Part shown: positions 27,831-55,983 of the stretch, piece after piece | Numbering within the stretch: the first letter of the stretch is position 1 | How the letters are laid out: each line of letters starts with the position of its first letter | Assembly: GCA_947460575.1 (NCBI GenBank) | Contig: CANHIJ010000003.1 | Location: forward strand, 19,093-83,092 | Direction: 5' to 3' | DNA: 64,000 nucleotides | Source: Verrucomicrobiales bacterium | GTDB taxonomy: Bacteria; Verrucomicrobiota; Verrucomicrobiia; Verrucomicrobiales; V1-33 | Made by a program: the position numbers and the translations under genes | The notes under the pieces: generated by a model | Told to the model about the DNA's origin: nothing | Seen by the model: only the letters and a program-made list of their open reading frames with translations | Database searches by the model: none

Positions 27831-27905
27831 GACCCTTTCGTCTAACGGTTAGGACACGACCCTTTCACGGTTGTAATACGGGTTCGATTCCCGTAGGGGT
27901 CGCCA
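27831..27905 (+). tRNA. tRNA-Glu (TTC)
   Basis: Cloverleaf: acceptor GACCCTT/AGGGGTC, anticodon arm CGACC-CTTTCAC-GGTTG, T arm ACGGG-TTCGATT-CCCGT, encoded CCA. Confidence 0.96.
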
Positions 27906-41640: not shown

Positions 41641-42828
41641 ATGATCCGCTGCTGTCCTGGACTCCTGTGCATCGCCTTGATTTGGCCGCTGCTGGCGACG
41701 GCCTGCCGCGAGGAGGTGGTCGTGCCTCCGGCCGCTCCGGCGCTGGTCAAGGTGGCCAAGCCGCTCCGGGCGGACGTGCCGGTGGTGGTGGAGGTCATCG
41801 CCCAGACCGAGGCCACCGCTAACGTGGAGGTGCGGGCCCGGGTGGAGGCCACGGTGGAGCGGATCGCCTTTCAGGAGGGCACCGCGGTGAAGCCGGGGGA
41901 CCTGCTTTTCGTGTTAGACAAAAAACCCATTGAGCAGCGCTTGGCGGCCGCGCGAGGTAACCTCGGGCAAGCCGTGGCCGCTCTGGGCCGCACCCGCCAG
42001 GACGTGCTGCGCCTTCGGCCGCTCGCGGCCCGCAGCGCCGTGCCGCAAAAGGACCTCGACACCGCCCTGGCCCTTGAGCAGCAGGCCCAGGCCGCCGTGG
42101 ATACGGGCGAGGCCCAGGTGAAGAGCGCGGAATTGGACCTCAGCTACACCGAGGTCACCGCCCCCGTCGCTGGGATGATCGGGGCCAAACAGGTCGACGT
42201 CGGCTCGCTGGTGGGCAAGGGCCAGCCCACGTTGCTGGCGGTGATTTCTCCCCTCGATCCCATCTGGGTCAACTTTGAAACCAGCGAAGTCGCCTATTTG
42301 AATAATGCAGCGCGGTTTCGCGAGGTCGGCGGAGCGGCGGATTTCTCGCTCGTTCTAGCCAATGGCAAGCAGCATCCCCACCCGGGGAAACTGGCTTTCG
42401 TGGACCGCATCGTCAACGCATCAACCGGGACGATCCGGCTGCGCGTGGAGTTTCCCAATCCCGAAAAAATCCTCCGCCCCGGGCAATTTTGCCGGATTCG
42501 CGCCCTGGCCCGCACTCTGCCGGGAGCCCTGTTGATTCCGCAGCGCGCGGTGCAGGAGTTGCAGGGGCTGTGCAATGTCATTACGGTGGGGCCGGACGGC
42601 AAGGCCGCCCACAAGCGCGTCCAAATGGGCAATCGCATCGGGTCCCTCTGGGTGGTGGAGTCCGGCCTGGGACCGGACGACCAGGTCGTCGTCGAGGGCC
42701 TGCTCAAGGCCCGGGACGGAGCTCCGGTGCAGGCCCAGCCGACTGCGATCGATGACACTTCGCTACAGGAATTGCGGCGCAGCGTGCCCGGCGGGGCTCC
42801 TCCCGCGGCGGCGCCAGTCGCTCCTTAA
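41641..42828 (+). CDS. RND efflux periplasmic adaptor (MFP) lipoprotein
   Basis: Lipobox LATAC, VEVRARV, GDLLF, YTEVTAPVAG, FPNP...LRPGQF. Confidence 0.93.
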   Translation: MIRCCPGLLCIALIWPLLATACREEVVVPPAAPALVKVAKPLRADVPVVVEVIAQTEATANVEVRARVEATVERIAFQEGTAVKPGDLLFVLDKKPIEQRLAAARGNLGQAVAALGRTRQDVLRLRPLAARSAVPQKDLDTALALEQQAQAAVDTGEAQVKSAELDLSYTEVTAPVAGMIGAKQVDVGSLVGKGQPTLLAVISPLDPIWVNFETSEVAYLNNAARFREVGGAADFSLVLANGKQHPHPGKLAFVDRIVNASTGTIRLRVEFPNPEKILRPGQFCRIRALARTLPGALLIPQRAVQELQGLCNVITVGPDGKAAHKRVQMGNRIGSLWVVESGLGPDDQVVVEGLLKARDGAPVQAQPTAIDDTSLQELRRSVPGGAPPAAAPVAP

Positions 42829-42850
42829 GCCCCTTCACGGAAGCTCCCCT

Positions 42851-45800
42851 ATGGCTGACTTTTTTATCCGACGGCCCATCGTGGCCATGGTGATCTCCAT
42901 TTTGTTGGTGATCATCGGATCCTTTACCCTAACGCGCCTTCCGATTTCGGAATACCCTGAGGTAAGTCCTCCCGTGGTGCAAGTGAGTGCTAACTTCCGC
43001 GGGGCCGCGGCGGAGGCGGTGGAGGCCTCGGTGGCCACGCCGCTGGAAGCGCAGATCAATGGGGTGGAGGACATGCTCTATATGAAATCGGTCAATGCGG
43101 CCGATGGCTCCATGAGCCTCAGCGCCACCTTCGACCTTGGCAGCAGCGTCAGCTTGAACCAGGTGAACGTGCAAAACCGGGCGTCCCTCGCTTTCCCCCG
43201 CTTGCCCGAGGCGGTGACCCGCGAGGGGGTCAGCGTGAAGCGCTCTAGCCCCGACGTCCTCCTGGTGGTGGGCTTGGTTTCGCCTCAGGGGACCTACGAC
43301 GCGGTTTTTCTGTCCAACTACGCGACGATCAACATGATCGACGCCATCGCGCGGGTCAGCGGAGTGGGGGATGTGCGCAATTTTACGGCGCAAGACTATG
43401 CCATGCGGCTCTGGATCGACCCCGAGCGCCTAGCGGCTTTTGGGTTGACGCCGGCGGACGTGATGGCCGCGGTGCGGGAGCAAAATGCTCAGGCCGCCGC
43501 GGGCCTGGTGGGAGCTGAGCCGGCCCAGAAGGGGCAGGAATTTCAGTACAACGTGGTGGCCAGCGGGCTGCTCCAGGAGCCCAAGGAGTTTGAGGAAATC
43601 ATCGTCCGCTCGAATCCCGATGGATCCCAAATCAAAGTCAAGGACGTGGCCCGCATTGAGATGGGTGCCCAGGTGTACAAGAGTACCGCCCGCGTCAATG
43701 GGGCCCCGGCCGCGGCGCTGGGCATTTATTTGGCCCCGGGGGCCAATGCCCTGGCTACCGCGGGGGCCATCAAGCAGCAACTAGCGGAAATGGCGCTGCG
43801 CTTTCCTCCCGACGTGAAGGTGGAAATCACCCTCGACTCCACCCTTCCGATCAGCGCTTCCATGGAGTCGATCGTGCACACCTTGATGGAAGCTTTGGTG
43901 TTAGTGATCTTGGTGGTCTTCCTCTTTTTGCAGAGCTTTCGGGCCACCTTGATCCCCATGCTGACGGTGCCGGTGGCTTTGCTGGGGACATTTATGGTTT
44001 TCCCGCTGCTCGGTTTTTCGGTGAATACCCTGACGCTTTTTGGTCTGGTGTTGGCGATTGGGATTGTGGTGGATGACGCCATTGTGGTGGTGGAGGCGGT
44101 GATGCACCACCTGGAGCACGGGCTGAGTCCGGTAGAGGCCACCAAGAAGGCCATGAAGGAAGTGTCGGGGCCGGTGGTGGCGATCGCTTTGATTCTCTGC
44201 GCGGTGTTTGTGCCGGTGGCCTTCATACCTGGGCTGACGGGGACGCTTTACCAACAGTTTGCCATCACGATTGCGGCCTCGGTGATTTTTTCGGCGATCA
44301 ATGCGCTCACCCTCAGCCCGGCGCTGGCGGCACTGCTGCTGCGTCCGCCCCAGGAGCGGCGCGGGCCACTGGGCTGGTTTTTTGGGCGCTTCAATCGAGG
44401 CTTTGAAGCAGTGACGGCGCGCTACACGGGGGTGGTGGGTTTTCTGGTGCGGCGCTCGGCGCGGGCGATGCTGCTTTTAGTGGCGGCGGGGGTGGGCATC
44501 GTATGGATCGGCAAGCAGGTGCCGGGAGGCTTCGTGCCGGATGAGGACAAGGGTTACTTTTTTGTGGCGGCGGAGTTGCCCGACGCAGCCTCGCTGCAGC
44601 GCACGCAGGCGGTCAGCCAGCAGATTGAGGCCCTCCTGCAAAAAACCGAGGGAGTGCAATCCTTTCTCAATATTGCGGGCTTCAGCATCATGTCGAACGT
44701 GTCGTCGCCTAACGCGATTACCTTTTTTGTGAGTTTGAAGGACTGGAAGGAGCGCGCCGCGCCGGAGACGCACGTGAAGGGGATCATCAAGCAATTGATG
44801 CGGCAATTTGCGGCGATCCCGGAGGCCCGGGTGTTGGCTTTTGGGCCGCCCTCGCTGCCGGGCTACGGCAACGCCTCAGGTTTCACCTTTGAGTTGCAGG
44901 ACCGGGTCGGCGGCAGCGTGGACGAGCTGGCGGAAATGACGAAGAAATTTATGGCGGCGGCGGCGCAGCGCCCGGAATTGGCGCGGCTCTACACCGGATT
45001 TCGCCCGGCGGTGCCCCAGGTCAAAGTGGACCTCGACCGCGAGAAGTGCCGGGTCTTGGGAGTGAGCGTCAGCGATGTTTACGCCACCTTGCAGGCGTAT
45101 CTTGGGGGGGCCTATGTGAACGATTTTAACCGTTTTGGGAGGGTCTACCGGGTTTACCTGCAGGCTGAGCCGCGCTTCACTAGCAAGCCCGAGGACATTG
45201 CCAAATTCTACGTGCGCAACAAGGAGGGCAAGATGGTGCCGCTGGATACCCTGGTGAAGGTCTCCCAGGTCAATGGCCCGGCCTACACGACGCGCTACAA
45301 CCTATTCCGCGCCGTGGAAATCACGGGGGCCCCGGCCCCGGGCTTTAGCTCTAGCCAGGCGCTGGAGGCCATGGAAGCGGTGGCCCGCGATGTCCTGCCC
45401 GCGGGTTTTGGCTACGAGTGGACTGGCCTTACCTACCAGGAGAAGAAAGCGGCGGGCCAGGCGGGTTTCATCTTGGCGCTGGCGTTCGTCTTTGTTTTCC
45501 TCCTGCTGGCGGCGCAATACGAGAGCTGGGCGCTGCCCTTTAGCGTGCTCCTAGCCACCCCGCTGGTGGTGCTGGGCACCTTTTTGGGGCTGTTGATGCG
45601 CGGGTTTGACAACAACATCTACGCCCAGATCGGGGTCATCATGCTGATTGGCCTAGCGGCCAAAAATGCCATTTTGATTGTGGAGTTCGCCAAGGCGGAA
45701 TGCGACAAGGGGATGCCCTTCGCAGAGGCCGCCATCCTGGGGGCGAAGCTGCGGCTGCGACCTATTTTGATGACATCGTTTGCCTTTATTTTGGGGGCGG

Positions 45801-46006
45801 TTCCCCTAGCCATTGCTACGGGTTCGGGAGCCGAGTCTCGCAAGGTGATGGGCACCGCGGTGGTCTTCGGCATGAGCGTGGCTACGGTCATCGGGGTGTT
45901 TATCATCCCGGCCTGCTATGCCTTTGTGATGCGCCTTTCCGGGGCCGGCCGGACCCCGCCCCGCCCCGAGATTTCTTCAGCTCCTCCCACCCATGTCGCC
46001 GAATAA
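42851..46006 (+). CDS. RND efflux permease (HAE1/AcrB family)
   Basis: FFIRRPIVA, GIVVDDAIVVVE, GLAAKNAILIVEFA, RLRPILMTS. Confidence 0.96.
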   Translation: MADFFIRRPIVAMVISILLVIIGSFTLTRLPISEYPEVSPPVVQVSANFRGAAAEAVEASVATPLEAQINGVEDMLYMKSVNAADGSMSLSATFDLGSSVSLNQVNVQNRASLAFPRLPEAVTREGVSVKRSSPDVLLVVGLVSPQGTYDAVFLSNYATINMIDAIARVSGVGDVRNFTAQDYAMRLWIDPERLAAFGLTPADVMAAVREQNAQAAAGLVGAEPAQKGQEFQYNVVASGLLQEPKEFEEIIVRSNPDGSQIKVKDVARIEMGAQVYKSTARVNGAPAAALGIYLAPGANALATAGAIKQQLAEMALRFPPDVKVEITLDSTLPISASMESIVHTLMEALVLVILVVFLFLQSFRATLIPMLTVPVALLGTFMVFPLLGFSVNTLTLFGLVLAIGIVVDDAIVVVEAVMHHLEHGLSPVEATKKAMKEVSGPVVAIALILCAVFVPVAFIPGLTGTLYQQFAITIAASVIFSAINALTLSPALAALLLRPPQERRGPLGWFFGRFNRGFEAVTARYTGVVGFLVRRSARAMLLLVAAGVGIVWIGKQVPGGFVPDEDKGYFFVAAELPDAASLQRTQAVSQQIEALLQKTEGVQSFLNIAGFSIMSNVSSPNAITFFVSLKDWKERAAPETHVKGIIKQLMRQFAAIPEARVLAFGPPSLPGYGNASGFTFELQDRVGGSVDELAEMTKKFMAAAAQRPELARLYTGFRPAVPQVKVDLDREKCRVLGVSVSDVYATLQAYLGGAYVNDFNRFGRVYRVYLQAEPRFTSKPEDIAKFYVRNKEGKMVPLDTLVKVSQVNGPAYTTRYNLFRAVEITGAPAPGFSSSQALEAMEAVARDVLPAGFGYEWTGLTYQEKKAAGQAGFILALAFVFVFLLLAAQYESWALPFSVLLATPLVVLGTFLGLLMRGFDNNIYAQIGVIMLIGLAAKNAILIVEFAKAECDKGMPFAEAAILGAKLRLRPILMTSFAFILGAVPLAIATGSGAESRKVMGTAVVFGMSVATVIGVFIIPACYAFVMRLSGAGRTPPRPEISSAPPTHVAE

Positions 46007-47420
46007 CTCATTTCTTTGTTGGCTCGGAGTGGTCCCCGCCCTACTGCTAGGAGGCTGCGCGGTCGGTCCCCACTACGAGCGCTCTGGGCCAGTGTTGGGA
46101 GAGACTTTTCGCTTTGGCAGCCGCGCCGCGGGCCCCAGCTTGGGGGAACTCGACTGGCGCTCGGTTTTCCAGGACCCGGTGCTGCAGGGGCTGATCGGCG
46201 AGGCCTTGGCCAACAACCCCGACCGCCAAATCGCCGCCTCCCGAGTGCTGCAGGCTCAGGCCAGCCTGGAGGTCGTGCGCTCCCAGTTGTTTCCCAACCT
46301 GGGCGCCAGCCTGAATTCGGCCCGCCGCGGCGTCTCCGCGTCGGAGGCCGGAGGGCCTGCCGCCACCAGCGAATCGACCAGCGCGGGGCTGAACTTGCTG
46401 ACGTACGAGTTCGACTTCTGGGGCAAGTTTCGCCGCGCCAGCGAGGCCGCGCGGGCCCGCCTCCTCGCCACCGCGGAAGGCCAGCGCCTGGTGGAGTCCG
46501 GCCTGGTCTGCAGCACCGCGATCGCCTATCTGACCTTGCTAGAGGAAGACCAAGAGTTGGCGATTTCTCAACGCACTTTGGCGAGCCGCCGCCAATCGCT
46601 GGAGCTCATCAGCATCCGGCAGCAGGGCGGCCAGAGTGCCCTGACGGATGTTCGGCAGGCGGAAGTGTTGGTGGCGGAGGCCGACGCGGCGATGAGTTTG
46701 ATCCGCCGACAGGTGGGCCAGCTGGAGAACTTGTTGAGCACCTTGGCGGGGCGCGCCCCGGGGCCGATCCGGCGGGGCCAGTCCTTCGCCTCGGCTAAGA
46801 TCCTCAGTCCGGCGCCGATGGGGCTGCCGTCGGAGTTGCTCAATCGCCGACCTGATTTGCGGGCCGCGGAGCAGGAATTGATCGCGGCCACGGCGGAGAT
46901 TGGGGTCGCCGAAGCCAAGCTCTTGCCCAGCTTTAGCCTAACAGCAGGGGCTGGTTTGCGCAGCGCGGCCTTTGCCGATCTGTTCAAAGATCCGGCGCGG
47001 TTTTGGCAGTTGGGCCCGTCGGTGGAGGTGCCGGTGTTTGCCGGGGGCCGCCTGCGGGCGGGCCTGCGGGGCAGCCAGGCGGCCCGCGACGAGGCCGAGG
47101 CCAAGTACCGCAAGGCGGTGCTGGAGGCGCTGCGGGAGGTTTCCGACGCCCTGATTGCCCGGCAGCAGAGCGCTGATTTCAGCGCGGCGCAGGCCCGCGT
47201 GGTCGCCGCCCGGTCCGGGGCCTTGGTCCTGATTCGCGAGCAGTACGACAACGGAGTGACGAGTTATTTGGAGGTCCTCTACAACGACCAACAGCTTTTC
47301 CTAGCCGAGATCAGCCAGGCTAGGGCGCAACTCGATGCCCTGACGGCCACGGTGCAATTATACCGCGCCCTCGGGGGCGGCTGGGACAAGTCAAGCATTC
47401 CTGTGGGGCGGAAGCCCTGA
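45993..47420 (+). CDS. RND outer membrane factor lipoprotein (OprM/NodT family)
   Basis: LLGGCAVGP lipobox, PSELLNRRPD, LYRALGGGW. Confidence 0.95.
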   Translation: MSPNNSFLCWLGVVPALLLGGCAVGPHYERSGPVLGETFRFGSRAAGPSLGELDWRSVFQDPVLQGLIGEALANNPDRQIAASRVLQAQASLEVVRSQLFPNLGASLNSARRGVSASEAGGPAATSESTSAGLNLLTYEFDFWGKFRRASEAARARLLATAEGQRLVESGLVCSTAIAYLTLLEEDQELAISQRTLASRRQSLELISIRQQGGQSALTDVRQAEVLVAEADAAMSLIRRQVGQLENLLSTLAGRAPGPIRRGQSFASAKILSPAPMGLPSELLNRRPDLRAAEQELIAATAEIGVAEAKLLPSFSLTAGAGLRSAAFADLFKDPARFWQLGPSVEVPVFAGGRLRAGLRGSQAARDEAEAKYRKAVLEALREVSDALIARQQSADFSAAQARVVAARSGALVLIREQYDNGVTSYLEVLYNDQQLFLAEISQARAQLDALTATVQLYRALGGGWDKSSIPVGRKP

Positions 47421-47433
47421 GCCGCCCGCCGCT

Positions 47434-49593
47434 TCAGTAGTGGACCGCGCTGACGGCGTCGAGGTCAAAGCCGGAGCTGCCCTTGCCGCTGAGGGGGTTG
47501 AAGGCGGGGTCGTCGGGGTGGCGGATGAGGTCGCCGCCGATGTCGTCGCAGCGGGCTTGGTCGCCGGTGGATTGGATGCGGACATAGCGGATCCAGCTGA
47601 GGTCGGCGGCGGCGGCATCGAGGTCGAGGCTGTCGCCGCCGCTGCGCGCGGGATTGGTGGGGTCTTCGCCGGTGGTGCCGTTGCGCCCGGCAAAGCCGCG
47701 CGCATAGTAGAAGGGATCGCGGAGGTCCAGCGCTTGCCCGGCGGCGGGCGGCACGGCGTCGCAAGGCAGGGCGCGCCATTCACCGGGGAAGAGGGCCACG
47801 CTGACCACGGCGGGCTCCATGAAGCGCTGATTGGCGCTGCCGCCGATGAAGAGGACATTTTCGAAAATGGTGAGGTCTTCCCCGGGGGCGATTTCGACGA
47901 TATTGTCGGTGAATTCGAGATCAATGCGGCCTCCCGCGAAGGGTTTGGCGTGAAGGGAGAGCACTTCGCCGGGTTTGTAAGCGGGGGCGTAGGTGCTGCG
48001 GCCGTCGGGCGGGCCGGTCACGTTGCGGGGCAGGTTCGCGGAACCATAGCCGTTAGTGCTGAGGGGTTGGAAGGAGACTACGCGGTCGGCGTAGGGATCG
48101 CCCGTAGACCCGGGCTGGGCGCGCTCCAAGGTCTGAGGCAAGACGGCGGTTTCCTGTTCGGCGAGGGCCTGCGCGGCGCCGTCGCTGGTGAGGGCGACGA
48201 GGGTGTAGCGGGGGGTGCTGCCGGTGGGCAGGCCGCGGTCCACGAAGTTGCTGCCGGTTCCTTGATAGACGGGCCGACCGTCGCGCAGCACGCGGAAGGT
48301 GCTGGCCGTGAGGCCACCGGCGGCGAGCAGTTGAGAAACCCGCGCGGGGTGCCAGGCGACCCCGACCTTTTCCCGGCTGGGGACCAAGGTCAGGAGGTCG
48401 CTGACGGCGAGGTGAAACGTTTTTTGAAACGTGGCCCCAGCGGCGTCCGTGACCACTAGAGAGAACTCGGCCCATTGGCTATCCGGCCCGCCGCGCCCCC
48501 GCAGCACGCCCTCGGGGGACAGTTCCCAGGAGGGGTCGGGGAGGCGGCCCGAATCGAGCTCCCATGTGTAGGGCGGCGTGCCGCCCTCGGCGGCGAAGGT
48601 GCCTTGGTAGGGCTCCCCGGGCGCGGCGGGGGGGAGGGCGCTGGGGGTGGCGATGGAGACGCTTTCGGCAACGGTGAGGAGGAAGTCGCGCCTAACGCGG
48701 GTGAGCTGAGCGTCGATAACTATTAGGGTAAAGGGGTACTCGCCGGCTTCCAGGGGGGAGCCGGAGCAGAGGCCGGTGGAATCGATCGGAAGGCCACCGG
48801 GAGCGTGGGGGCTGCTGTCCCAGGTGTAGGGGGGGACGCCGCCGGTGGCTTGAAAGGAGAGGGTGAAAGGCAGGCCGACGCTGCGGGGATCCAGCGCGGC
48901 AGTGGCGATGGCGAGGTCCTGAGCGGGTTTGATAGTGAGCGTTAGGGCGGCGGAGTCGCTGGCCCCGGCAGCGTCGGTGACGGTGAGTTTGAAAGGGGTG
49001 TGGCGGGGGACGGCGCTGGTGCCGCGGAGGGTGGCGTCGGGTGGATTGAAGAGGAAGGGGCCGGGCTCTGCGGGGAGGTCGACCGACCAGGTGTAGGGCG
49101 GGGAGCCGCCGATGGCTTCGGCTTGGTAGGAGAAGGGCTGGTCGACCTTGCCAGGCGGGGGATTACCGGTGGCGATGGAGAGGGGGATAGCGGTGAGGGG
49201 CGGGGGGCCGCCGCCGGGGTGGGGGCCGGGGGAGTAGACGGGAAACCAGACCCCATTTTTTTTGACGGCGCGATTTAGGCCGGTGCCGCCTTCGCCCTCG
49301 ATGGAAGTTAGGCCTTTGGGGAGGGCTTTGGGGTCGTAGGTGCGGAGGTCGGCGGCTGCGCGCATCGGGCCGCTGGGGGCGGCGGGGGGGGAGTCGGGGC
49401 GCCCGGCGGCGGCGGGCGAGATATCAGTTAGAGTGGAATCGTCCGGGTCGGCGGCGGGGCCAAGCCAAGCGGCGAGCCAGCGCGGGCGGTGCTGCGGGGA
49501 GGTCGCGGCCCACCAACTCCAGCCGCCCAGGGAGAGGCCGAGCAGGAGCAGGAGCAGGGCGACGGGGGAGCGGAAGGGGCGCGGGGGCTTCAT
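47434..49593 (-). CDS. Membrane-anchored surface protein: 3 putative Ig repeats, FN3-like domain, C-terminal BtuH-like domain
   Basis: N-terminal TM; GG(S/V/T)PPYTW x3; C-terminal DPYADRV...DLTIFEN...GFDLDAV; ATGA overlap with the upstream gene. Confidence 0.75.
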
Positions 49594-51623
49594 GGGAGCA
49601 GGCGCAAGCGCAGGCGCAGGAAATGGCTCGAAGAGGGTGGGGAGGAGTCGCGCAGGGTCACTGCAACGACCGGTGGGAGGGCGGTTTCCTGGATGGCGGG
49701 GGCGGCGAGAGCGAGGGGGGCGAAGGCTTGGCCGCGCGCGCTTTCGGCTATAGTGATCCAAGGGCCCGCGAGGTGGTCGGAGGCTTCGACGGTGTACGAG
49801 AGGTCGGTGCGGAGGGGGTGGCGACAGAAAGATAGGGTGGCTTGGCCGCGGCTGAGGCCGGGGACCAGGGGGCTGGGACCGGGGACGAGGGGCGGGGTGT
49901 GGAAGGCGTATTCGAGGAGGTTAGGGGAGCCGTCGCCGTCGGGGTCGGCTTGGGAGTTATTTTCCTGATGGGAGGCGGCGGGGCCGAAATGGAAAGCCTG
50001 CCAGGAGGCGAAGGTTTCGGGGACGTCGAAGGCGCTGAGGGGGGCGAGGCCGTGGCGGAGGGGGCTGCCGGGGGTGCCGGAGAGGTCGGAGGCGAGAAAG
50101 GCGACGTAAGCTTCGCCGCGGCGAGAGAAGGTTTGGACTTGATAGAGGGGGTCGAAGTCGGGGGGGAGGGCGTCGGGTTGGAGGCGGCGGGAGGCGCCGG
50201 TGGTGGGGTCGAAGACTTGGAGGGAGGGGGTTTTGAAGCCGCTGGCCCAGAGGCGGCCCTGGGCGTCGACGGCTAGGGAGCTGGCGCTGTCGAATTGGAA
50301 AACGGGGGTGCCTTGGGAGCCGGAGAGGCCGGTCTGGCCGGACTCGAGGGCGACGATGGCGGCGTCGATTTGGGCGGGGGAGAAGCGGCGCACCCATTCG
50401 GCGGCGGCCTGGGCGGGGCTGCCGGGCAATTCATATTGGGCGGCGAAGACCTGGCCCGCGGAGTCGGCAGCGACGGCGGCGCTGTAGGTGCTGAGGCGCG
50501 CCACGAGGGGGCCGAGGAGGCGGCCGGAGGGGGTGAGAAAGCTCAGTCCGTGCTGGCCGGTGGCGCTTTGGATGCCGCCCACGATCCAGCCGGAGCGGCC
50601 GCTGGCGGGGGAGTGCCACCAGCTTCCGCAAAAGTTAGGGAGAGAGGCCAGGGGAGCGGCGGGGAGGGCGGGCGCAGGCGGGGAGGGGTCGAAGAGGTAG
50701 AGGCCGGTGGCGCCGCCGAAGGATCCGCCGCCTCCGAGGAGGGCGCGGTTGGCGTCGGCGACGGCGATAAAGGCGGGGTCGAAGGCAGCGTCGCCAGAGG
50801 CGATGGGGAGGTGATCGGCTTGGCCCCAAGCGGCTTGGATGTGGAGTTGGCCCTGGGCGCCGAGGAGGAAGCGGCCGTCGGGGAGGTGGGCGAAGGCGGT
50901 GGCGTTGACGCCGGTGCCGTCGAGTTGATCGACGGTTAGGGTTTGCCAGGATTGGAGATGGATGACGCCGATGGCGTCGAGGTCGAAGCCGGCGGATCCG
51001 CTCACGGGAAAGGGATCGTAGATCGGGCGACTGGCGGAATCGCGGGACCGGCCGTCGCCGATGACATCGATGAGGCGGACGTGAGAAACTTGGTCGAGGC
51101 CGAGGTCGGCGAGGTCGAAGGGTTCGCCGAAGGCTTGGCGGAATTTGCCGGCGAGGCCTTGGACGTCGCTGGGGTCGATGCTGCCGAAGGGCCCGACCGG
51201 GTTGGGGGTGAGGGAGAAGTTGGGGAAGCGGGTGAAGTGGACGCCGTCGCAGGAGACTTCGACGTAGGCGAGTTCGAGGAAGGTGTCGCTGAAGCTGTTT
51301 TCGAAGATGGCGAAGTCGGGGCCGGGGCCGTCGTGGATGAAGCCGGGAAACGATAGGGTGATGCTGCCGCCGGAGCCGAGGGAGGCGACGTGGGTGGGGT
51401 CGTCGGTGGCGGGACCGAGGGATTTGGTAGGATCTTGCCAGGCGGGGGAGGCGTCGGACCCCGCGGCGTAGGCAGGAGCGCGGTTGGCCCAGGCGGTGAA
51501 GCGGGGGTCGCTGCGGTGCATGGCGGTGGAGCCTAGTTGCTGGGCGGCGGGAGAGTAGGGTCCGGCGGGGGCAGGGGAGGCCGCTAGCAGGGCGAGCCAA
51601 GGGGTGAGCAAGCGGGCTCTCAT
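49590..51623 (-). CDS. Exported protein: BtuH-like domain, putative beta-propeller, DPDGD...FLRL C-terminal domain
   Basis: Signal peptide; [12 protein letters not shown]...DFAIFEN...VEVSCDG...GFDLDAIG; C-terminal [15 protein letters not shown]...HFLRLRL. Confidence 0.75.
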
Positions 51624-51682
51624 GGCGAGGGGAAGGCGGGCCCGCGCCCTGGGGAGGGGGGCGCGGGCGGCTCGGGGGGTGG

Positions 51683-52360
51683 CTAGGGGCGGCGGCGCCA
51701 GAAGCCCGCGCTGGCGAGGGCGAGCAGGGCCGGGGCGGCGGGCTCGGGGATGGGAGCGGGGGCTGGAATGGGCCGGGCGGGGCTGGCGGTGCCGTCGCTG
51801 TAGATCCAGCCGTCCCAGGAGCCGTGGGCCAGGGGTCGGCCGAGTACGCCGGTGTTAGAGGGGATCCACGCGCCGGGGCCGCCTTCGTCGTAGGGGCTGC
51901 CGAGGGGGGGCAGGAGGTGGGCTCCGGCGGGGGCGGCGCCGTCGCTGTAGTTGCCATCCTGCTGAAGGTTGTTGACGAAGTAGTTGAGGTACGCGCCGGT
52001 GCTGGGGTTGTAGGCGGGGAAGCTGAATTCCGCGGCGCCATCGAGGTCGGCATCCCAGCGGAGGTCGCTGACAAAGGCGTCGCCGACCAGGGAGAAGCGG
52101 GGTTCGACACCTGCTAGGGCGAGGAGGAGGTCGCGGCCCTGGCGGGGCGCGGCGGGGTCCCAGCGGAGGCCCCAAGCCCAAGCGGATTGGCCGGGCCACT
52201 GAATGACGAGGACGGCTTCGCTGAGGCCGGGAGCGGCGTCGGGGCCGATCCAGGTGGAGACGTCGGAGGTGAGGAAGGCCGCGCCCTGGGAGGGGGAGAG
52301 CAGCGCCGCCGCGAGGAGGGCGCCCGCGGTGAGCGGGCGCATCGTTTTTGATGGGGTCAT
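51683..52360 (-). CDS. PEP-CTERM surface protein
   Basis: Signal peptide; WIG...AVLVIQW...WGLRWD domain; C-terminal [22 protein letters not shown]. Confidence 0.85.
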
Positions 52361-52406
52361 GGATTCGGACCGGCTTTGGAATCGAGCCGGGGTCGAGGGG
52401 TTGAGA

Positions 52407-52580
52407 TCCGCACATCAAGTGTTCTGACTCCCGGCTTCAGACCTCGGCCCCGCCTTCACCCAGGGGGCTCGCTTCTTACAAGAAGAGGCGGGCTTGATTG
52501 GATTGGCAATGTGGGACTTTGTAACCGGATACAGCAGCGCCAACTGTCCCGGGATCTAACCGGGTTCCATGCTGCGCGGA
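52407..52580 (-). promoter_or_regulatory. Cobalamin (B12) riboswitch
   Basis: Minus strand: P1 TCCGCGCA/TGTGCGGA; GGAA-CCCGG-TTAGATC-CCGGG (P4 T-loop); CAG-TTGGCG-CTG (P5); CTGTA; GCCAAT...GAAGGC; B12 box AGTCAGAACAC. Confidence 0.9.
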
Positions 52581-52585
52581 CGATG

Positions 52586-52616
52586 ATTTTTACACGGGAG
52601 CGCGGGGAGCTGTCAA
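52586..52616 (-). promoter_or_regulatory. Sigma70 promoter of the B12-regulated operon
   Basis: Perfect TTGACA (52616-52611), 18-nt spacer, TAAAAAT; the predicted start near 52580 coincides with the 5' end of riboswitch P1. Confidence 0.65.
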
Positions 52617-52707
52617 CCTGCCATTGGGCTGGGGTGGGGCGGAGTTGGGCGGAAAAAGGGTGGAGCAAATCCCCGTATGCGGAGCGGAGCGGGTTGTGCC
52701 ACGCTCG

Positions 52708-55700
52708 ATGCCCATGAATAGCGACGAACGGATCCTCGAATTGCCTCAGCCCATTATCGACCGCTTGCGGGAGGTGATTGGGCGGGTTCGGCGGCACCAG
52801 TGGATTAAAGGGGGGCTGTTGACGGTGGCGGCGGCGGTGGGGGCGGTGGTGGGGGTGATGGGGTTGGATGCGGCGTTTGCGCTGGAGGCGCTGCCGCTGC
52901 GTCTAACGCTTTCTCTGAGTGGCCTGGGGGTGGTGGGGTGGGCGGCGTGGACGCAGTGGGTGCGGCCGCTGCGGCGGAAGATCAGCCTGACGGCGGTGGC
53001 CCGCTGGGTGGAGGGGCGCCACCCGGAATTGCAGGAGCGGATTTCCACCGCGGTGGAGTTGTTGGGGGGGGGCGCAGGCCGGGAGGGGCAGGAGTCGCGG
53101 GAGTTGTTGCGGGCGGTGGTGGAGGATGCGGTGGCCGACGTGGGCCGGATGAATCCGGCGGAGGAATTGGGTGCCCAGCGCTCCCGTCCGGCGAAGTGGC
53201 TGGCGGGTTCCGCGGTGGCATTTTTGGTAGGATTGGCAGCGCTTTGGCCCAACCAGGTTCCGCGCTTGTTGGCGCGGGCCTTGGCGCCGCTGTCGGATGT
53301 GGGCAATGCCTGGGCGGACCGGTTGCGGGTGTTGACGCCGAGTCAGGTGGTGGCCTGGGGGGACCCGCTGAGCATTGAGGTAGCGCTGCGGGGGCGGCGG
53401 GAGCGGGTCGAATTGCGCTTCACTGGCCCGGACGGGTCGGAGTTGGTGGAAACCCTGGCGCCGGACGGAGCGGTGCCGGTGTTAGTGGGCGAACAGGGCT
53501 ATGCGCTGCGCCTGCCCAAAGTGGAGCACGGTTTTTCGGCTAGGGTGGTGGCGGGAAAAGCGGTGAGTGCGACCTTTCGCATTGAGGCCATCGCCCGGCC
53601 GGAAGCAGGCCCCCTGACGATAACCTATGACTACCCTGACTACACTGGTTTGCCGGACGCGGTGAAGCCTGGGGCTTCGGGGGAGATTGCGGCGCTGGAG
53701 GGGACGCGGGTGTCGGTGGCGGCGGATCTGGTGGGCGCGGTGTCGCGGGCGCGGGTGACGATTGGGGGGGAAGAATGGGCGGGGGTAGAGTTGTCGGGCG
53801 AGGCGGCGGCGCCCCGGGTGCGTTGGAGCGCGGTGATGGCGCCGCAGATGGACGCGGCGTGGTCGCTGCAGCTAGAGGAAGGGCATGGGCTGGCGAGTCG
53901 GCCGGTGGGGGGGAGGATCCGGGCCACGGCGGACTTGCCCCCGAGCATTGTGCTAGAGAATCCCGTAGAGGACCGCCTGGAGCTGCGGCCGGTGGAGCGC
54001 TTGGCCTTGACTTATTTTGTGGCGGAGGATTGGGGGCTTTCGGCGGTGCAGCTGCGGATTCGCCCGCAGGAGGGCGCGGAATATTTTTTGCCCGCGGGGG
54101 AGCTGCCAGAGGCGGTGCCGGATCGGGCGGGGGAGTACCGGGGGCGGGCGGAGTTGGATTTGTCTAAACTGGTAGTGCCGGAGGGTCAGGAGATCCGGGT
54201 GAGTGTGATGGCGGCGGACCGCTTGCCGACCGAGCGGCAGGGGCCGCAGCGGGCCTATAGCCGGGAGATTGTGATCCGGCTGAATCGCTGGACGCGCCCG
54301 CAGGTGGAGCAGAAATTTGCCGCGCAGCACCAGGAGGTGCGCCAGAAGATGGAGGAGGTGAAGCAGGCGCTGCAGTCGGCGCGGGGCTTGTTGGCCGACA
54401 AGCCGGAGCGCCTCAAGACAGAAGAAAAGCTCAGTGCCGAGACACTTAAGGATTTGGAGGCGGGAGCCCAACAGATGAAAGAGGCCCGCGGGATGATGGA
54501 AAAATTGCAGGAGCGCATCAAGGAGACGGCCTATGCGAGGCAGAAGGGGGGGTTGCAGGAGATTGCCCAGGACATGGTGCGGCCCGCGGAGGCGGCGGCC
54601 AAGGATGTTCCGCTGAGCGATCAAAAGGCGGCGCGGGCGGCCCTGGCGCAGACGGCGCGCAATCTCTTGGACGACGCTATCAAGAAAATGGAGCAGGAGC
54701 AGCAGCAGATGGATCAGGCCCGGGAGGCGGTCCAGAAGGTGGCCCAGCTTTCCGATATCGCAGAGCAACAGCAGCGGCTCGCGGCGGAGGCGGCGGCGGC
54801 GGAGCGCCCCGCGGCGGCGGCGAGTCCTGACAAATTGACAGAGGCTGGCGCCGCGGCGAGCCCGGCGGCCCCGACCCCGGCGGCGGCGGGGGCCCCGGCC
54901 GAGGAAGCACAGCAGAAGTGGCTAGAGGACCAGCGCGCCGTGGCGGCGCGGGCGCGGCAATTGGCGGAGGAGGTGAAGCAATCCAATCCCCAGGCGGCCC
55001 AGGACCAGTTTCGGCAGGCGGCCGCGCAGGCGGTTTTGCTGGCGGCGGAGGCCGAGGCTTTAGGGCAAAAGCAAAGTGGCCTAGCGGCGGCGCTGGCCTC
55101 GGCGAGCCCGCCAGAAGCGAGGCTGCAGGGCGCCGCGGCGCAGGTAGACTTGGCCCGGCAGGTGGCCGCGCTGCAGGAAAAGGCCACGGGATTCCAGCAG
55201 GGATCGGCGAGGCAGATCGACCAGAGTTTGGCGACCCAGGAAGCGGCTTATGCGGCGCAGGCGAATTTGCAGGAGGGGGCGGGGCTGGCGCGCCGCGCGG
55301 GCGAGGAGTTGGCCGCGGCGGCGGCACCGGCGGCGGCCGCGACTCCGGCAGCAGAACCGGCTTCGACTCCCGCGGCGGCGACTCCGACTCCGACTCCGAC
55401 TCCGGCGGCGGGGCAGCAGGCGGCGCAGGACAGCGCGCGGACGCTGGCGGCGGCGGCGGCTTCGCTGAAGGCCTTGGGGGTGGAATTTCAGGGTTTGGCG
55501 GGGCAGGTCGCGGAGCACGGGAAGTCGCTCGGGGAGGGGGCGGAGCAGGCTGGGGAGGCGGTGGCGGCGGCGGAGCAAGGGGCGGGGCAGGGGATGCAGC
55601 AGGGGGCGGCGGCGGCGCAGCAGGCGGCGGAGCAATTGGCGCTGGCTGCTAACACCGCGCTGCAGGCGATGAGCATTCCGGCGAGTGCCAAGTCTTCGCA

Positions 55701-55983
55701 GGCCTCACCGCCCAGCGCGGGGCCGGGGCAGGCCAAGGATGGGCCGCCCAGTCCGTCGGGCGATCCGGGCCAGGAGGGCAAGGATGGGCTGCAGGGGGAT
55801 GCCGCGAGCGGGGAGTTGCCCGCGGAGTTGGCGAAGTTGGGATTGACGCCGGACGACTGGATGAAGTTGCGCAGCGCCCTCCAGGGGGTAGAGGGAGCCC
55901 GCGACGAGGCCATTCCGGCGGAGTACCGGGACCTGGTGAAAGCGTATTTTGGAGCCCTATCAAAAGGAGGAAAAATCAAATGA
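52708..55983 (+). CDS. Large membrane-anchored coiled-coil protein (DUF4175-like)
   Basis: N-terminal TMs, HPELQERISTAVEL, YDYPDYTG, DLPPSI...EDWGL, Ala/Gln-rich coil, C-terminal IPAEYRDLVKAYF. Confidence 0.7.
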   Translation: MPMNSDERILELPQPIIDRLREVIGRVRRHQWIKGGLLTVAAAVGAVVGVMGLDAAFALEALPLRLTLSLSGLGVVGWAAWTQWVRPLRRKISLTAVARWVEGRHPELQERISTAVELLGGGAGREGQESRELLRAVVEDAVADVGRMNPAEELGAQRSRPAKWLAGSAVAFLVGLAALWPNQVPRLLARALAPLSDVGNAWADRLRVLTPSQVVAWGDPLSIEVALRGRRERVELRFTGPDGSELVETLAPDGAVPVLVGEQGYALRLPKVEHGFSARVVAGKAVSATFRIEAIARPEAGPLTITYDYPDYTGLPDAVKPGASGEIAALEGTRVSVAADLVGAVSRARVTIGGEEWAGVELSGEAAAPRVRWSAVMAPQMDAAWSLQLEEGHGLASRPVGGRIRATADLPPSIVLENPVEDRLELRPVERLALTYFVAEDWGLSAVQLRIRPQEGAEYFLPAGELPEAVPDRAGEYRGRAELDLSKLVVPEGQEIRVSVMAADRLPTERQGPQRAYSREIVIRLNRWTRPQVEQKFAAQHQEVRQKMEEVKQALQSARGLLADKPERLKTEEKLSAETLKDLEAGAQQMKEARGMMEKLQERIKETAYARQKGGLQEIAQDMVRPAEAAAKDVPLSDQKAARAALAQTARNLLDDAIKKMEQEQQQMDQAREAVQKVAQLSDIAEQQQRLAAEAAAAERPAAAASPDKLTEAGAAASPAAPTPAAAGAPAEEAQQKWLEDQRAVAARARQLAEEVKQSNPQAAQDQFRQAAAQAVLLAAEAEALGQKQSGLAAALASASPPEARLQGAAAQVDLARQVAALQEKATGFQQGSARQIDQSLATQEAAYAAQANLQEGAGLARRAGEELAAAAAPAAAATPAAEPASTPAAATPTPTPTPAAGQQAAQDSARTLAAAAASLKALGVEFQGLAGQVAEHGKSLGEGAEQAGEAVAAAEQGAGQGMQQGAAAAQQAAEQLALAANTALQAMSIPASAKSSQASPPSAGPGQAKDGPPSPSGDPGQEGKDGLQGDAASGELPAELAKLGLTPDDWMKLRSALQGVEGARDEAIPAEYRDLVKAYFGALSKGGKIK

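Follow-up and report, generated by a model that had tools for sequence, protein, structure and literature searches.

The analyzed window, a 64,000-nucleotide stretch of a Verrucomicrobiales bacterium (GenBank assembly GCA_947460575.1, contig CANHIJ010000003.1, positions 19,093 to 83,092), carries on its reverse strand a unit of three genes, between window positions 47,434 and 52,616, in which a B12 riboswitch precedes three exported proteins that resemble known B12-binding proteins. Its components, in the order of transcription, are the following (residue numbers refer to the respective protein):

52586..52616, minus strand: promoter-like elements seen by eye (TTGACA at 52616-52611 and A/T-rich TGTAAAAAT at 52594-52586)
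52404..52581, minus strand: probable approximate extent of the riboswitch including its closing helix (P1-like pairing in the minimum-free-energy fold)
52419..52568, minus strand: cobalamin riboswitch aptamer (RF00174)
51683..52360, minus strand: gene 1 (P0001), 225 residues; signal peptide, transcobalamin-type β domain (modeled), PEP-CTERM anchor
51782..52288, minus strand: domain of gene 1, residues ~25-193; β-grasp of the transcobalamin/intrinsic factor/haptocorrin β-domain type (model)
51689..51754, minus strand: PEP-CTERM sorting motif of gene 1, residues 203-224 (PF07589)
49590..51623, minus strand: gene 2 (P0002), 677 residues; signal peptide, BtuH-like H domain, possibly propeller-like middle, DPDGDG...FLRLRL tail
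50928..51560, minus strand: H domain of gene 2, residues 22-232 (identified by its model and structure matches)
49989..50948, minus strand: middle of gene 2, residues 226-545; possibly an NHL/YncE-type β-propeller (weak leads)
47434..49593, minus strand: gene 3 (P0003), 719 residues; N-terminal membrane anchor, linker, three He_PIG immunoglobulin (Ig)-like repeats, C-terminal H domain
47437..48096, minus strand: second H domain, C-terminus of gene 3, residues 500-719 (30% identity in the H-domain alignment)

The cobalamin riboswitch, proposed in a first-pass annotation of this DNA, was recovered by the Rfam covariance model RF00174 at 52419-52568(-), upstream of the three exported-protein genes and well above the gathering score (46.4 versus 31.5 bits; E = 1.8e-8). 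It could be aligned with 17 related riboswitches, 50 columns being invariant. The promoter claimed along with it found no such backing, as a σ70 consensus scan returned 0 sites in 47300-52800 and the TTGACA and TGTAAAAAT elements were recognized by eye only. The ATGA coupling of genes 2 and 3 is present in the sequence as an overlap at 49593-49590. The unit was also said to lack btuB, and searching the whole window by tblastn with TonB-receptor queries indeed yielded none; DUF4465 and prepilin-like queries were likewise without a match there.

The H domain and its relationship to BtuH

Genes 2 and 3 have a domain in common, as previously claimed: residues 84-222 of gene 2 and 553-718 of gene 3 aligned with a BLASTP E-value of 6e-7 and 27% identity. 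The model of this H domain, built from 40 aligned sequences, had a mean predicted local distance difference test (pLDDT) value of 96.6. When it was compared with 48,161 solved chains, the C-terminal domain of BtuH2 from Bacteroides thetaiotaomicron came first (7biz_B; Z 13.3, root mean square deviation (rmsd) 2.5 Å, 153 aligned residues, 17% identity) and residues 392-660 of BtuG1, its H domain, came second (8blw_B; Z 12.2). These two, at 17-20% identity, are the only solved BtuH-type domains, and the next match reached only Z 9.8. Foldseek placed 8blw_B first (E = 9e-4). When the H-domain family profile was run against 177,635 PDB sequences, BtuG1 was the sole significant match (8blw_B; E = 0.0027 over 95 residues), and single-sequence searches with the three proteins against PDB sequences matched neither BtuH2 nor BtuG1. 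NCBIfam returned the LIC_13355 lipoprotein model over the H domain (E = 0.041 and 7.8e-4), weakly and far below its 120-bit cut-off. Because BtuH2 and BtuG1 are the top structure matches and the profile matches BtuG1, the H domain is probably related, at a distance, to the binding domain of BtuH, which bears out the resemblance suggested in the first-pass annotation. The C-terminal extension of BtuG1 (~250 residues) is itself described as homologous to BtuH2 (10.1101/2022.11.17.516869).

The likeness extends to architecture. Gene 3 has the layout of BtuH2 (7BIZ), an Ig-like stalk followed by a C-terminal binding domain, and its three Ig repeats, already noted in the first-pass annotation, correspond to He_PIG stretches in Pfam (E = 1.8e-15). 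BtuH genes with PKD or β-propeller partner domains are described (10.1101/2022.11.17.516869), and gene 2 may mirror the joining of propeller and H domain in BtuG1 (8BLW), in reversed order. Its propeller-like middle could, however, not be confirmed: gene 2 matched no Pfam family, the BtuG propeller PF16819 included, and the ESM feature scores of 0.88-0.89 to NHL/YncE clusters and the TRIM71 NHL matches (E = 0.18-0.9) are weak leads, in a narrow family of 39 proteins. In both systems, the B12 loci are riboswitch-controlled. On the other hand, sequence similarity to BtuG1 is barely detectable (E = 0.0027) and to BtuH2 not at all, genes 2 and 3 do not encode outer-membrane lipoproteins of the Bacteroidota kind, gene 2 combines a plain signal peptide with a DPDGDG...FLRL tail, gene 3 has an N-terminal membrane anchor, and neither btuB nor btuG is part of the operon. 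BtuH homologues are reported from Bacteroidota and three Firmicutes (10.1101/2022.11.17.516869; a 2026 review), to which supplementary tables may add others; our literature search never found BtuH and Verrucomicrobia named together.

The H domain is widespread. At E ≤ 0.001, it was found in 2370 cluster representatives from a library of 1.84 billion proteins, and at least 566 relatives came from a scan of one genome per species; the 80 best-scoring of their loci were examined. They belong to Verrucomicrobiota, Planctomycetota, Desulfobacterota, Beta- and Gammaproteobacteria, Spirochaetota, Myxococcota, Bacteroidota, Lentisphaerae, and others. At least eight phylum-level groups possess the domain. 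Cobalamin riboswitches were detected in 56 of the 80 loci, in 55 of them on the strand of the H-domain gene and upstream of it. A covariance model derived from 18 Verrucomicrobial riboswitches (R1) found 40; all 40 loci missed by R1 were scanned with Rfam, which added 16, and counts based on R1 alone therefore understate the linkage. A DUF4465 domain was encoded in 57 loci (in 16 sharing one open frame with the H domain) and a TonB receptor in 44. At least one of riboswitch, DUF4465, TonB receptor, or prepilin-like gene was present in 73 of the 80 loci; the seven with none of these markers include some cut by contig ends. Two orders recurred: in 10 loci, riboswitch, DUF4465, receptor, and H domain; in 11 loci, a riboswitch with one frame behind it that comprises both DUF4465 and H domain. 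DUF4465 proteins, one of them from a Verrucomicrobium, are reported to bind B12, and the neighborhood analysis in that report used Pfam domains (10.1101/2025.08.21.671476). Being based on Pfam, it could not register the H domain, for which there is no Pfam model. Thus, the enrichment of homologues behind B12 riboswitches and beside btuB or TonB receptors, suggested earlier as a check, was observed for gene 1 (see below) and H-domain homologues alike, with the qualification that the wider H-domain family stands at btuB loci while the window itself has the riboswitch and no btuB.

Some of these loci are unusual in their own right. In an uncultured Desulfobacula (L078:508-591), a c-di-GMP-I-GGC riboswitch (RF03167; 64 bits, cut-off 59) immediately precedes a gene for DUF4465 (609-1442) and one resembling an H-domain gene, and no cobalamin riboswitch was found in the locus. 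Three Planctomycetota loci contain frames of ~2000 residues behind a cobalamin riboswitch (L067:2327-8248, L091:5902-11952, L093:1366-7428), with H domain and DUF4465 at the N-terminus and ~1500 residues beyond. A 7.4-kb locus of an uncultured Spongiibacteraceae has two cobalamin riboswitches (L120:1-167 and L120:3973-4167), one before the H-domain gene and the other downstream.

Genomic linkage and modeled fold of gene 1

Homologues of gene 1 form a small and tight family (71 proteins, nearly all with at least 50% identity and with uninformative names) characterized by many invariant tryptophans and a conserved Gly/Pro-rich stretch. They are present in 45 of 301 genomes of the order (own genome included) and in 35 of 37 of the own family, and are confined to Verrucomicrobiales relatives, with a patchy distribution outside the own family. 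The loci of the 30 best matches were fetched, one of which was that of the window itself; the following counts refer to these and not to the remaining matches. RF00174 was directly upstream of the gene 1 homologue in 28 of the 29 other loci and in all of three further genomes (31 of 32), the exception being a locus that ends at a contig end (L020). In the own genome and in five related ones, two of which are single contigs, the sole RF00174 match found was that before the operon; one riboswitch per genome is a lower bound, because, out of several hundred initial candidates, no more than 137-150 were scored in the genome-wide RNA searches. In almost every locus, gene 1 was followed by a gene of the gene 2 type, which frequently was a short version lacking the middle region. 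In two loci of a sister family (L041 and L042), a TonB receptor of 659-665 residues is encoded between the two, and in another locus (L040), a gene 1 homologue lies behind a riboswitch without any H-domain gene in the fetched 14.5 kb.

The closest parallel in genomic position is BtuJ, that is, DUF4465 (PF14717). Like gene 1, DUF4465 is the first gene after the riboswitch, has a PEP-CTERM tail in relatives among the Planctomycetes-Verrucomicrobia-Chlamydiae (PVC) bacteria, and has the same partners, an H-domain protein with or without a TonB receptor. In records of Luteolibacter and Haloferula, the cassette of riboswitch, DUF4465, receptor, and H domain occurs instead of gene 1, and DUF4465 was found in none of five genomes carrying gene 1. 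The idea that gene 1 is a diverged DUF4465 was considered and rejected, as gene 1 had no Pfam match and hhalign of its family against an alignment of 12 DUF4465 sequences aligned only the 26 columns of the PEP-CTERM tail; furthermore, DUF4465 is described as an augmented β-jellyroll (10.1101/2025.08.21.671476), whereas gene 1 was modeled as a β-grasp. As gene 1 takes the place of DUF4465, is alike only in the tail, and did not co-occur with it in the five genomes, it looks like a non-homologous replacement of BtuJ.

In at least 13 genomes, gene 1 and gene 2 homologues lie in one stop-free frame of ~590-670 residues (for example, L037:11074-12990, L038:9932-11839, L043:1442-3421, and L044:1528-3297), in which the PEP-CTERM motif and a second hydrophobic segment are kept mid-frame. 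These frames were initially taken for domain fusions, a notion then rejected; they were not counted as Rosetta-stone evidence because exosortase cleavage would part the two halves. The PEP-CTERM motif claimed for gene 1 scored just under the cut-off (19.9 versus 20.7 bits), yet was matched by 24 of 36 family members (best E = 3.1e-5), and three exosortase homologues (EpsH, PF09721) are encoded in the own genome (G000), so the claim can be upheld.

Gene 1 matched no Pfam family at E ≤ 1. Its AlphaFold model was moderately confident (mean pLDDT 57.6; core 70-90), with a conserved Gly/Pro-rich loop (residues 131-164) that was poorly modeled. Structure comparison with VIA-align ranked haptocorrin (4kkj, Z 10.6), intrinsic factor (2pmv, Z 10.4), transcobalamin (2bb6, Z 10.2), the isolated transcobalamin β domain (5no0, Z 9.9), and a bacterial DUF4430 structure (3u7z, Z 8.9) above generic β-grasp proteins (Z 6.0 and below). 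The superposition comprised the whole β domain (97-102 residues, rmsd 2.2-2.8 Å, for Z 9.9-10.6), and the same group (intrinsic factor, transcobalamin, haptocorrin, and 3u7z) made up the Foldseek matches listed at ranks 1-16, with gaps in the ranks. A separate model in the ESM Atlas had neighbor clusters with DUF4430, PF16819 (the BtuG propeller), PKD, and PEP-CTERM, which serves as a lead only. Sequence methods, including a search of PDB sequences with the gene 1 profile, which found no transcobalamin, did not see this link to DUF4430 and transcobalamin, so gene 1 cannot be assigned to the Pfam family, though its modeled fold agrees with it. With moderate confidence, gene 1 thus models as a relative in fold of the B12-binding β domain of transcobalamin, intrinsic factor, and haptocorrin, and its earlier nomination as a new candidate B12 binder gains from the distance between these matches (Z 9.9-10.6) and the next fold (6.0). 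A complex prediction for the gene 1 domain and the gene 2 H domain scored 0.00 and is uninformative either way.

The transcobalamin β domain has been crystallized alone with cyanocobalamin, according to the title of PDB entry 5np4. While the gene 1 model superposes on this domain and on 3u7z, the protein differs in having neither the α/α toroid partner domain nor a Pfam DUF4430 match, and in having the long conserved Gly/Pro-rich insert (131-164) and a PEP-CTERM anchor. A transcobalamin-like clade of soluble-ligand-binding β-grasp (SLBB) domains was defined by Burroughs et al. (2007; PMC1796856), who predicted B12 binding for its secreted bacterial members and reported such members from Firmicutes and planctomycetes. 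PF14478 (DUF4430) was found in 2 of 301 genomes of the phylum. In one other Verrucomicrobiota genome (L151:1035-2555), an element resembling the adenosylcobalamin riboswitch (RF01482; 49.2 bits, cut-off 50), which R1 also matches, is followed by a true DUF4430 lipoprotein (176 residues, 48.8 bits) and an ATGA-coupled DUF1559 prepilin-type protein (267 residues). Judged by titles and the beginnings of abstracts, none of the papers listed for DUF4430 deals with a bacterial B12 role.

B12 demand, proposed function, and competing explanations

The B12 domain of MetH was detected in all five genomes tested, CbiC in none of the five, and full-length MetE in one of the genomes tested. With MetH present and the corrin synthesis marker not found, these organisms must import the vitamin somehow, and this entire freshwater family of Verrucomicrobia seems to rely on an external supply of B12. 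In other lineages, the binders adjoin a TonB-dependent receptor behind a riboswitch, in the manner of BtuB-BtuG and BtuFCD systems, whereas the window operon has no receptor and none of the five genomes (G000, G011, G062, G114, G168) yielded a PF01497 (BtuF type) match, with 13 of 14 control genomes positive. The first-pass annotation had assumed a receptor encoded elsewhere, for which no evidence was obtained: a close orthologue of the cassette's BtuB was not found in the five family genomes searched, the Haloferula cassette receptor used as query matched G000, G011, G070, and G114 only weakly, in the Plug region, and G062 not at all, and the number of Plug-domain genes was two in G000, four in G011, nine in G114, and zero in G062. 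As the own genome is 89.6% complete, absences from it are soft. Apparently, the operon is the only B12-regulated locus in B12-requiring bacteria that lack the usual uptake genes. A mycobacterial member of the SbmA/BacA family imports B12, and SbmA/BacA-type proteins of 560-650 residues, present in three of the five genomes (G011, G062, G114), are therefore candidates for the inner-membrane step.

Taken together, the operon is probably a B12-repressed system for capturing corrinoids in the cell envelope, and the main inferences of the earlier interpretation are supported. When corrinoids are scarce, the riboswitch would permit expression of three exported binders: a PEP-CTERM-sorted protein with a transcobalamin-like β domain, a secreted protein with an N-terminal BtuH-type domain and a C-terminal tail, and a membrane-anchored Ig stalk holding a second BtuH-type domain at its end. 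Positioned presumably at different layers of the envelope, they would catch corrinoids outside or within it and pass them inward, by a presumed order of hand-over and path across both membranes, to the B12-dependent methionine synthase of an organism presumably unable to make the corrin ring. The best-supported reading is that of a system which may be analogous to the Bacteroides BtuJ/BtuH/BtuG relay.

A number of observations weigh against this interpretation. The riboswitch match covers only positions 47-167 of the 189 in the model, and neither a terminator scan nor the minimum-free-energy fold revealed a terminator or a clear expression platform. The gene 1 model is weak (83 of 225 residues below pLDDT 50), the E-values of its Foldseek matches are only 0.05-0.43, none of 36 family members matched PF14478 even at E ≤ 10, and hhalign of the family against one true DUF4430 protein gave E = 0.73. 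The H domain has the very common discoidin/CBM32 fold, for which matches reached Z 8-9.8; Foldseek ranks BtuH2 (7biz_B) only 11th (E = 2.6e-3), and the sequence profile of the H domain did not match BtuH2 at all. As to the counts, the gene 1 genomes are kin and the 80 H-domain loci are the best-scoring ones, so neither are independent samples, and one riboswitch per genome is, as noted, a lower bound. Finally, the operon contains no transporter, and uptake is therefore indistinguishable from sequestration.

This last point leads to the notion that the proteins do bind corrinoids, but form a reservoir in the envelope or matrix, or sequester the vitamin competitively, without an obligatory relay to a transporter. 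BtuJ1 is described as an extracellular vitamin reservoir (10.1101/2025.07.01.662609), and sorting of PEP-CTERM proteins by exosortase, of which the genome encodes three, would fit this as does the missing transporter gene. Considering that other lineages have a TonB receptor placed between these two domains in a single riboswitch-controlled operon, and that MetH in the absence of a detected corrin synthesis marker requires import, a mere reservoir is rather improbable. It is unlikely, too, that only the BtuH-like domains bind corrinoid and gene 1 is an adaptor or anchoring partner whose β-grasp has nothing to do with B12: the top five matches of the gene 1 model are all from the transcobalamin clade (Z 8.9-10.6), the independent ESM Atlas model has DUF4430, BtuG-family, and PKD clusters as neighbors, gene 1 occupies the operon position of the proven binder DUF4465, and in L040 it lies behind a riboswitch without an H-domain gene nearby. 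What keeps this explanation in consideration is the low confidence of the model, the failure of sequence searches to find a DUF4430 or transcobalamin link, and the commonness of the β-grasp fold, generic members of which scored Z 4-6.

The most distant alternative is that the operon encodes B12-regulated surface proteins for glycan binding or adhesion (CBM32-like, Ig-like) that bind no corrinoid. The many CBM32, discoidin, and lectin domains matched by the H-domain model, for which the Foldseek E-values are similar, would be compatible with such a role. It is rendered highly improbable by the link with riboswitch, DUF4465, and TonB receptor, which is maintained in Verrucomicrobiota, Planctomycetota, Desulfobacterota, Proteobacteria, Spirochaetota, Myxococcota, and others, and by the occurrence of H domain and DUF4465 in one open frame in 16 loci. 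Corrinoid capture in the envelope remains the preferred explanation.

Neighboring genes, possible prepilin-type partners, and implications

In the vicinity of the operon, genes for an RND-type efflux pump (~1040 residues of a 1143-residue frame) and a 475-residue outer-membrane factor lipoprotein, as recognized by translation (42575-47420(+)), converge on its end. A divergent frame of 1119 residues (52624-55983(+)) starts ~50 bases from the promoter region of the riboswitch and comprises a membrane segment, a long Ala/Gln/Glu-rich part resembling a coiled coil, and Ala/Pro-rich stretches of low complexity. A tRNA gene (RF00005; 59.7 bits) is located at 27831-27902(+).

A further potential component emerged from the homologous loci. 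A prepilin-type gene (~260-310 residues, N_methyl; some with DUF1559/PF07596) is part of the cassettes in 18 of the 80 H-domain loci (L067, L073, L075, L083, L084, L089, L091, L093, L096, L103, L104, L106, L112, L128, L131, L137, L140, L142) and in 6 of 15 extended gene 1 loci (L033, L036, L038, L040, L043, L044). All loci carrying it are from PVC bacteria (Planctomycetota, Verrucomicrobiota), and in eight Planctomycetota loci it is the first gene after the riboswitch. A TonB receptor was present in none of the 18 prepilin-containing H-domain loci as compared with 44 of the 62 others, a contrast that is confounded by taxonomy. In genomes with gene 3, no orthologue of the prepilin-type gene was found. 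Gene 3, the prepilin-like protein, and the TonB receptor thus look like alternative third components. A tentative extension of this, on balance doubtful, is that PVC bacteria lacking BtuB and BtuF import B12 without a TonB receptor. Outer binders, consisting of a transcobalamin-like or DUF4465 protein and a BtuH-like protein, would deliver the vitamin to an inner-membrane-anchored partner, which might be gene 3 in the present case and a prepilin-type DUF1559 protein in Planctomycetota and other Verrucomicrobiota. The literature search returned DUF1559 and B12 together only as an isolated co-mention, with each term occurring once. If this route proved true, a member of the large and uncharacterized DUF1559 family would for the first time be assigned a ligand and a role, and a bacterial transcobalamin-type domain would be shown to take part in B12 uptake.

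To our knowledge, detailed descriptions of B12 capture at the surface by accessory binders (BtuG, BtuH, BtuJ) are limited to gut Bacteroides. The locus analyzed here is a variant of such systems in which two domain families lack annotation and the import route awaits an explanation. The BtuH-type domain, for which Pfam has no model, is widespread, and its association with DUF4465 and BtuB in one cassette is conserved. A bacterial protein with a modeled transcobalamin β fold that is tied to a B12 riboswitch bears on the proposed bacterial origin of the animal B12 carriers. For a family of freshwater Verrucomicrobia without recognizable BtuB or BtuF, the route by which B12 is imported has now become testable.

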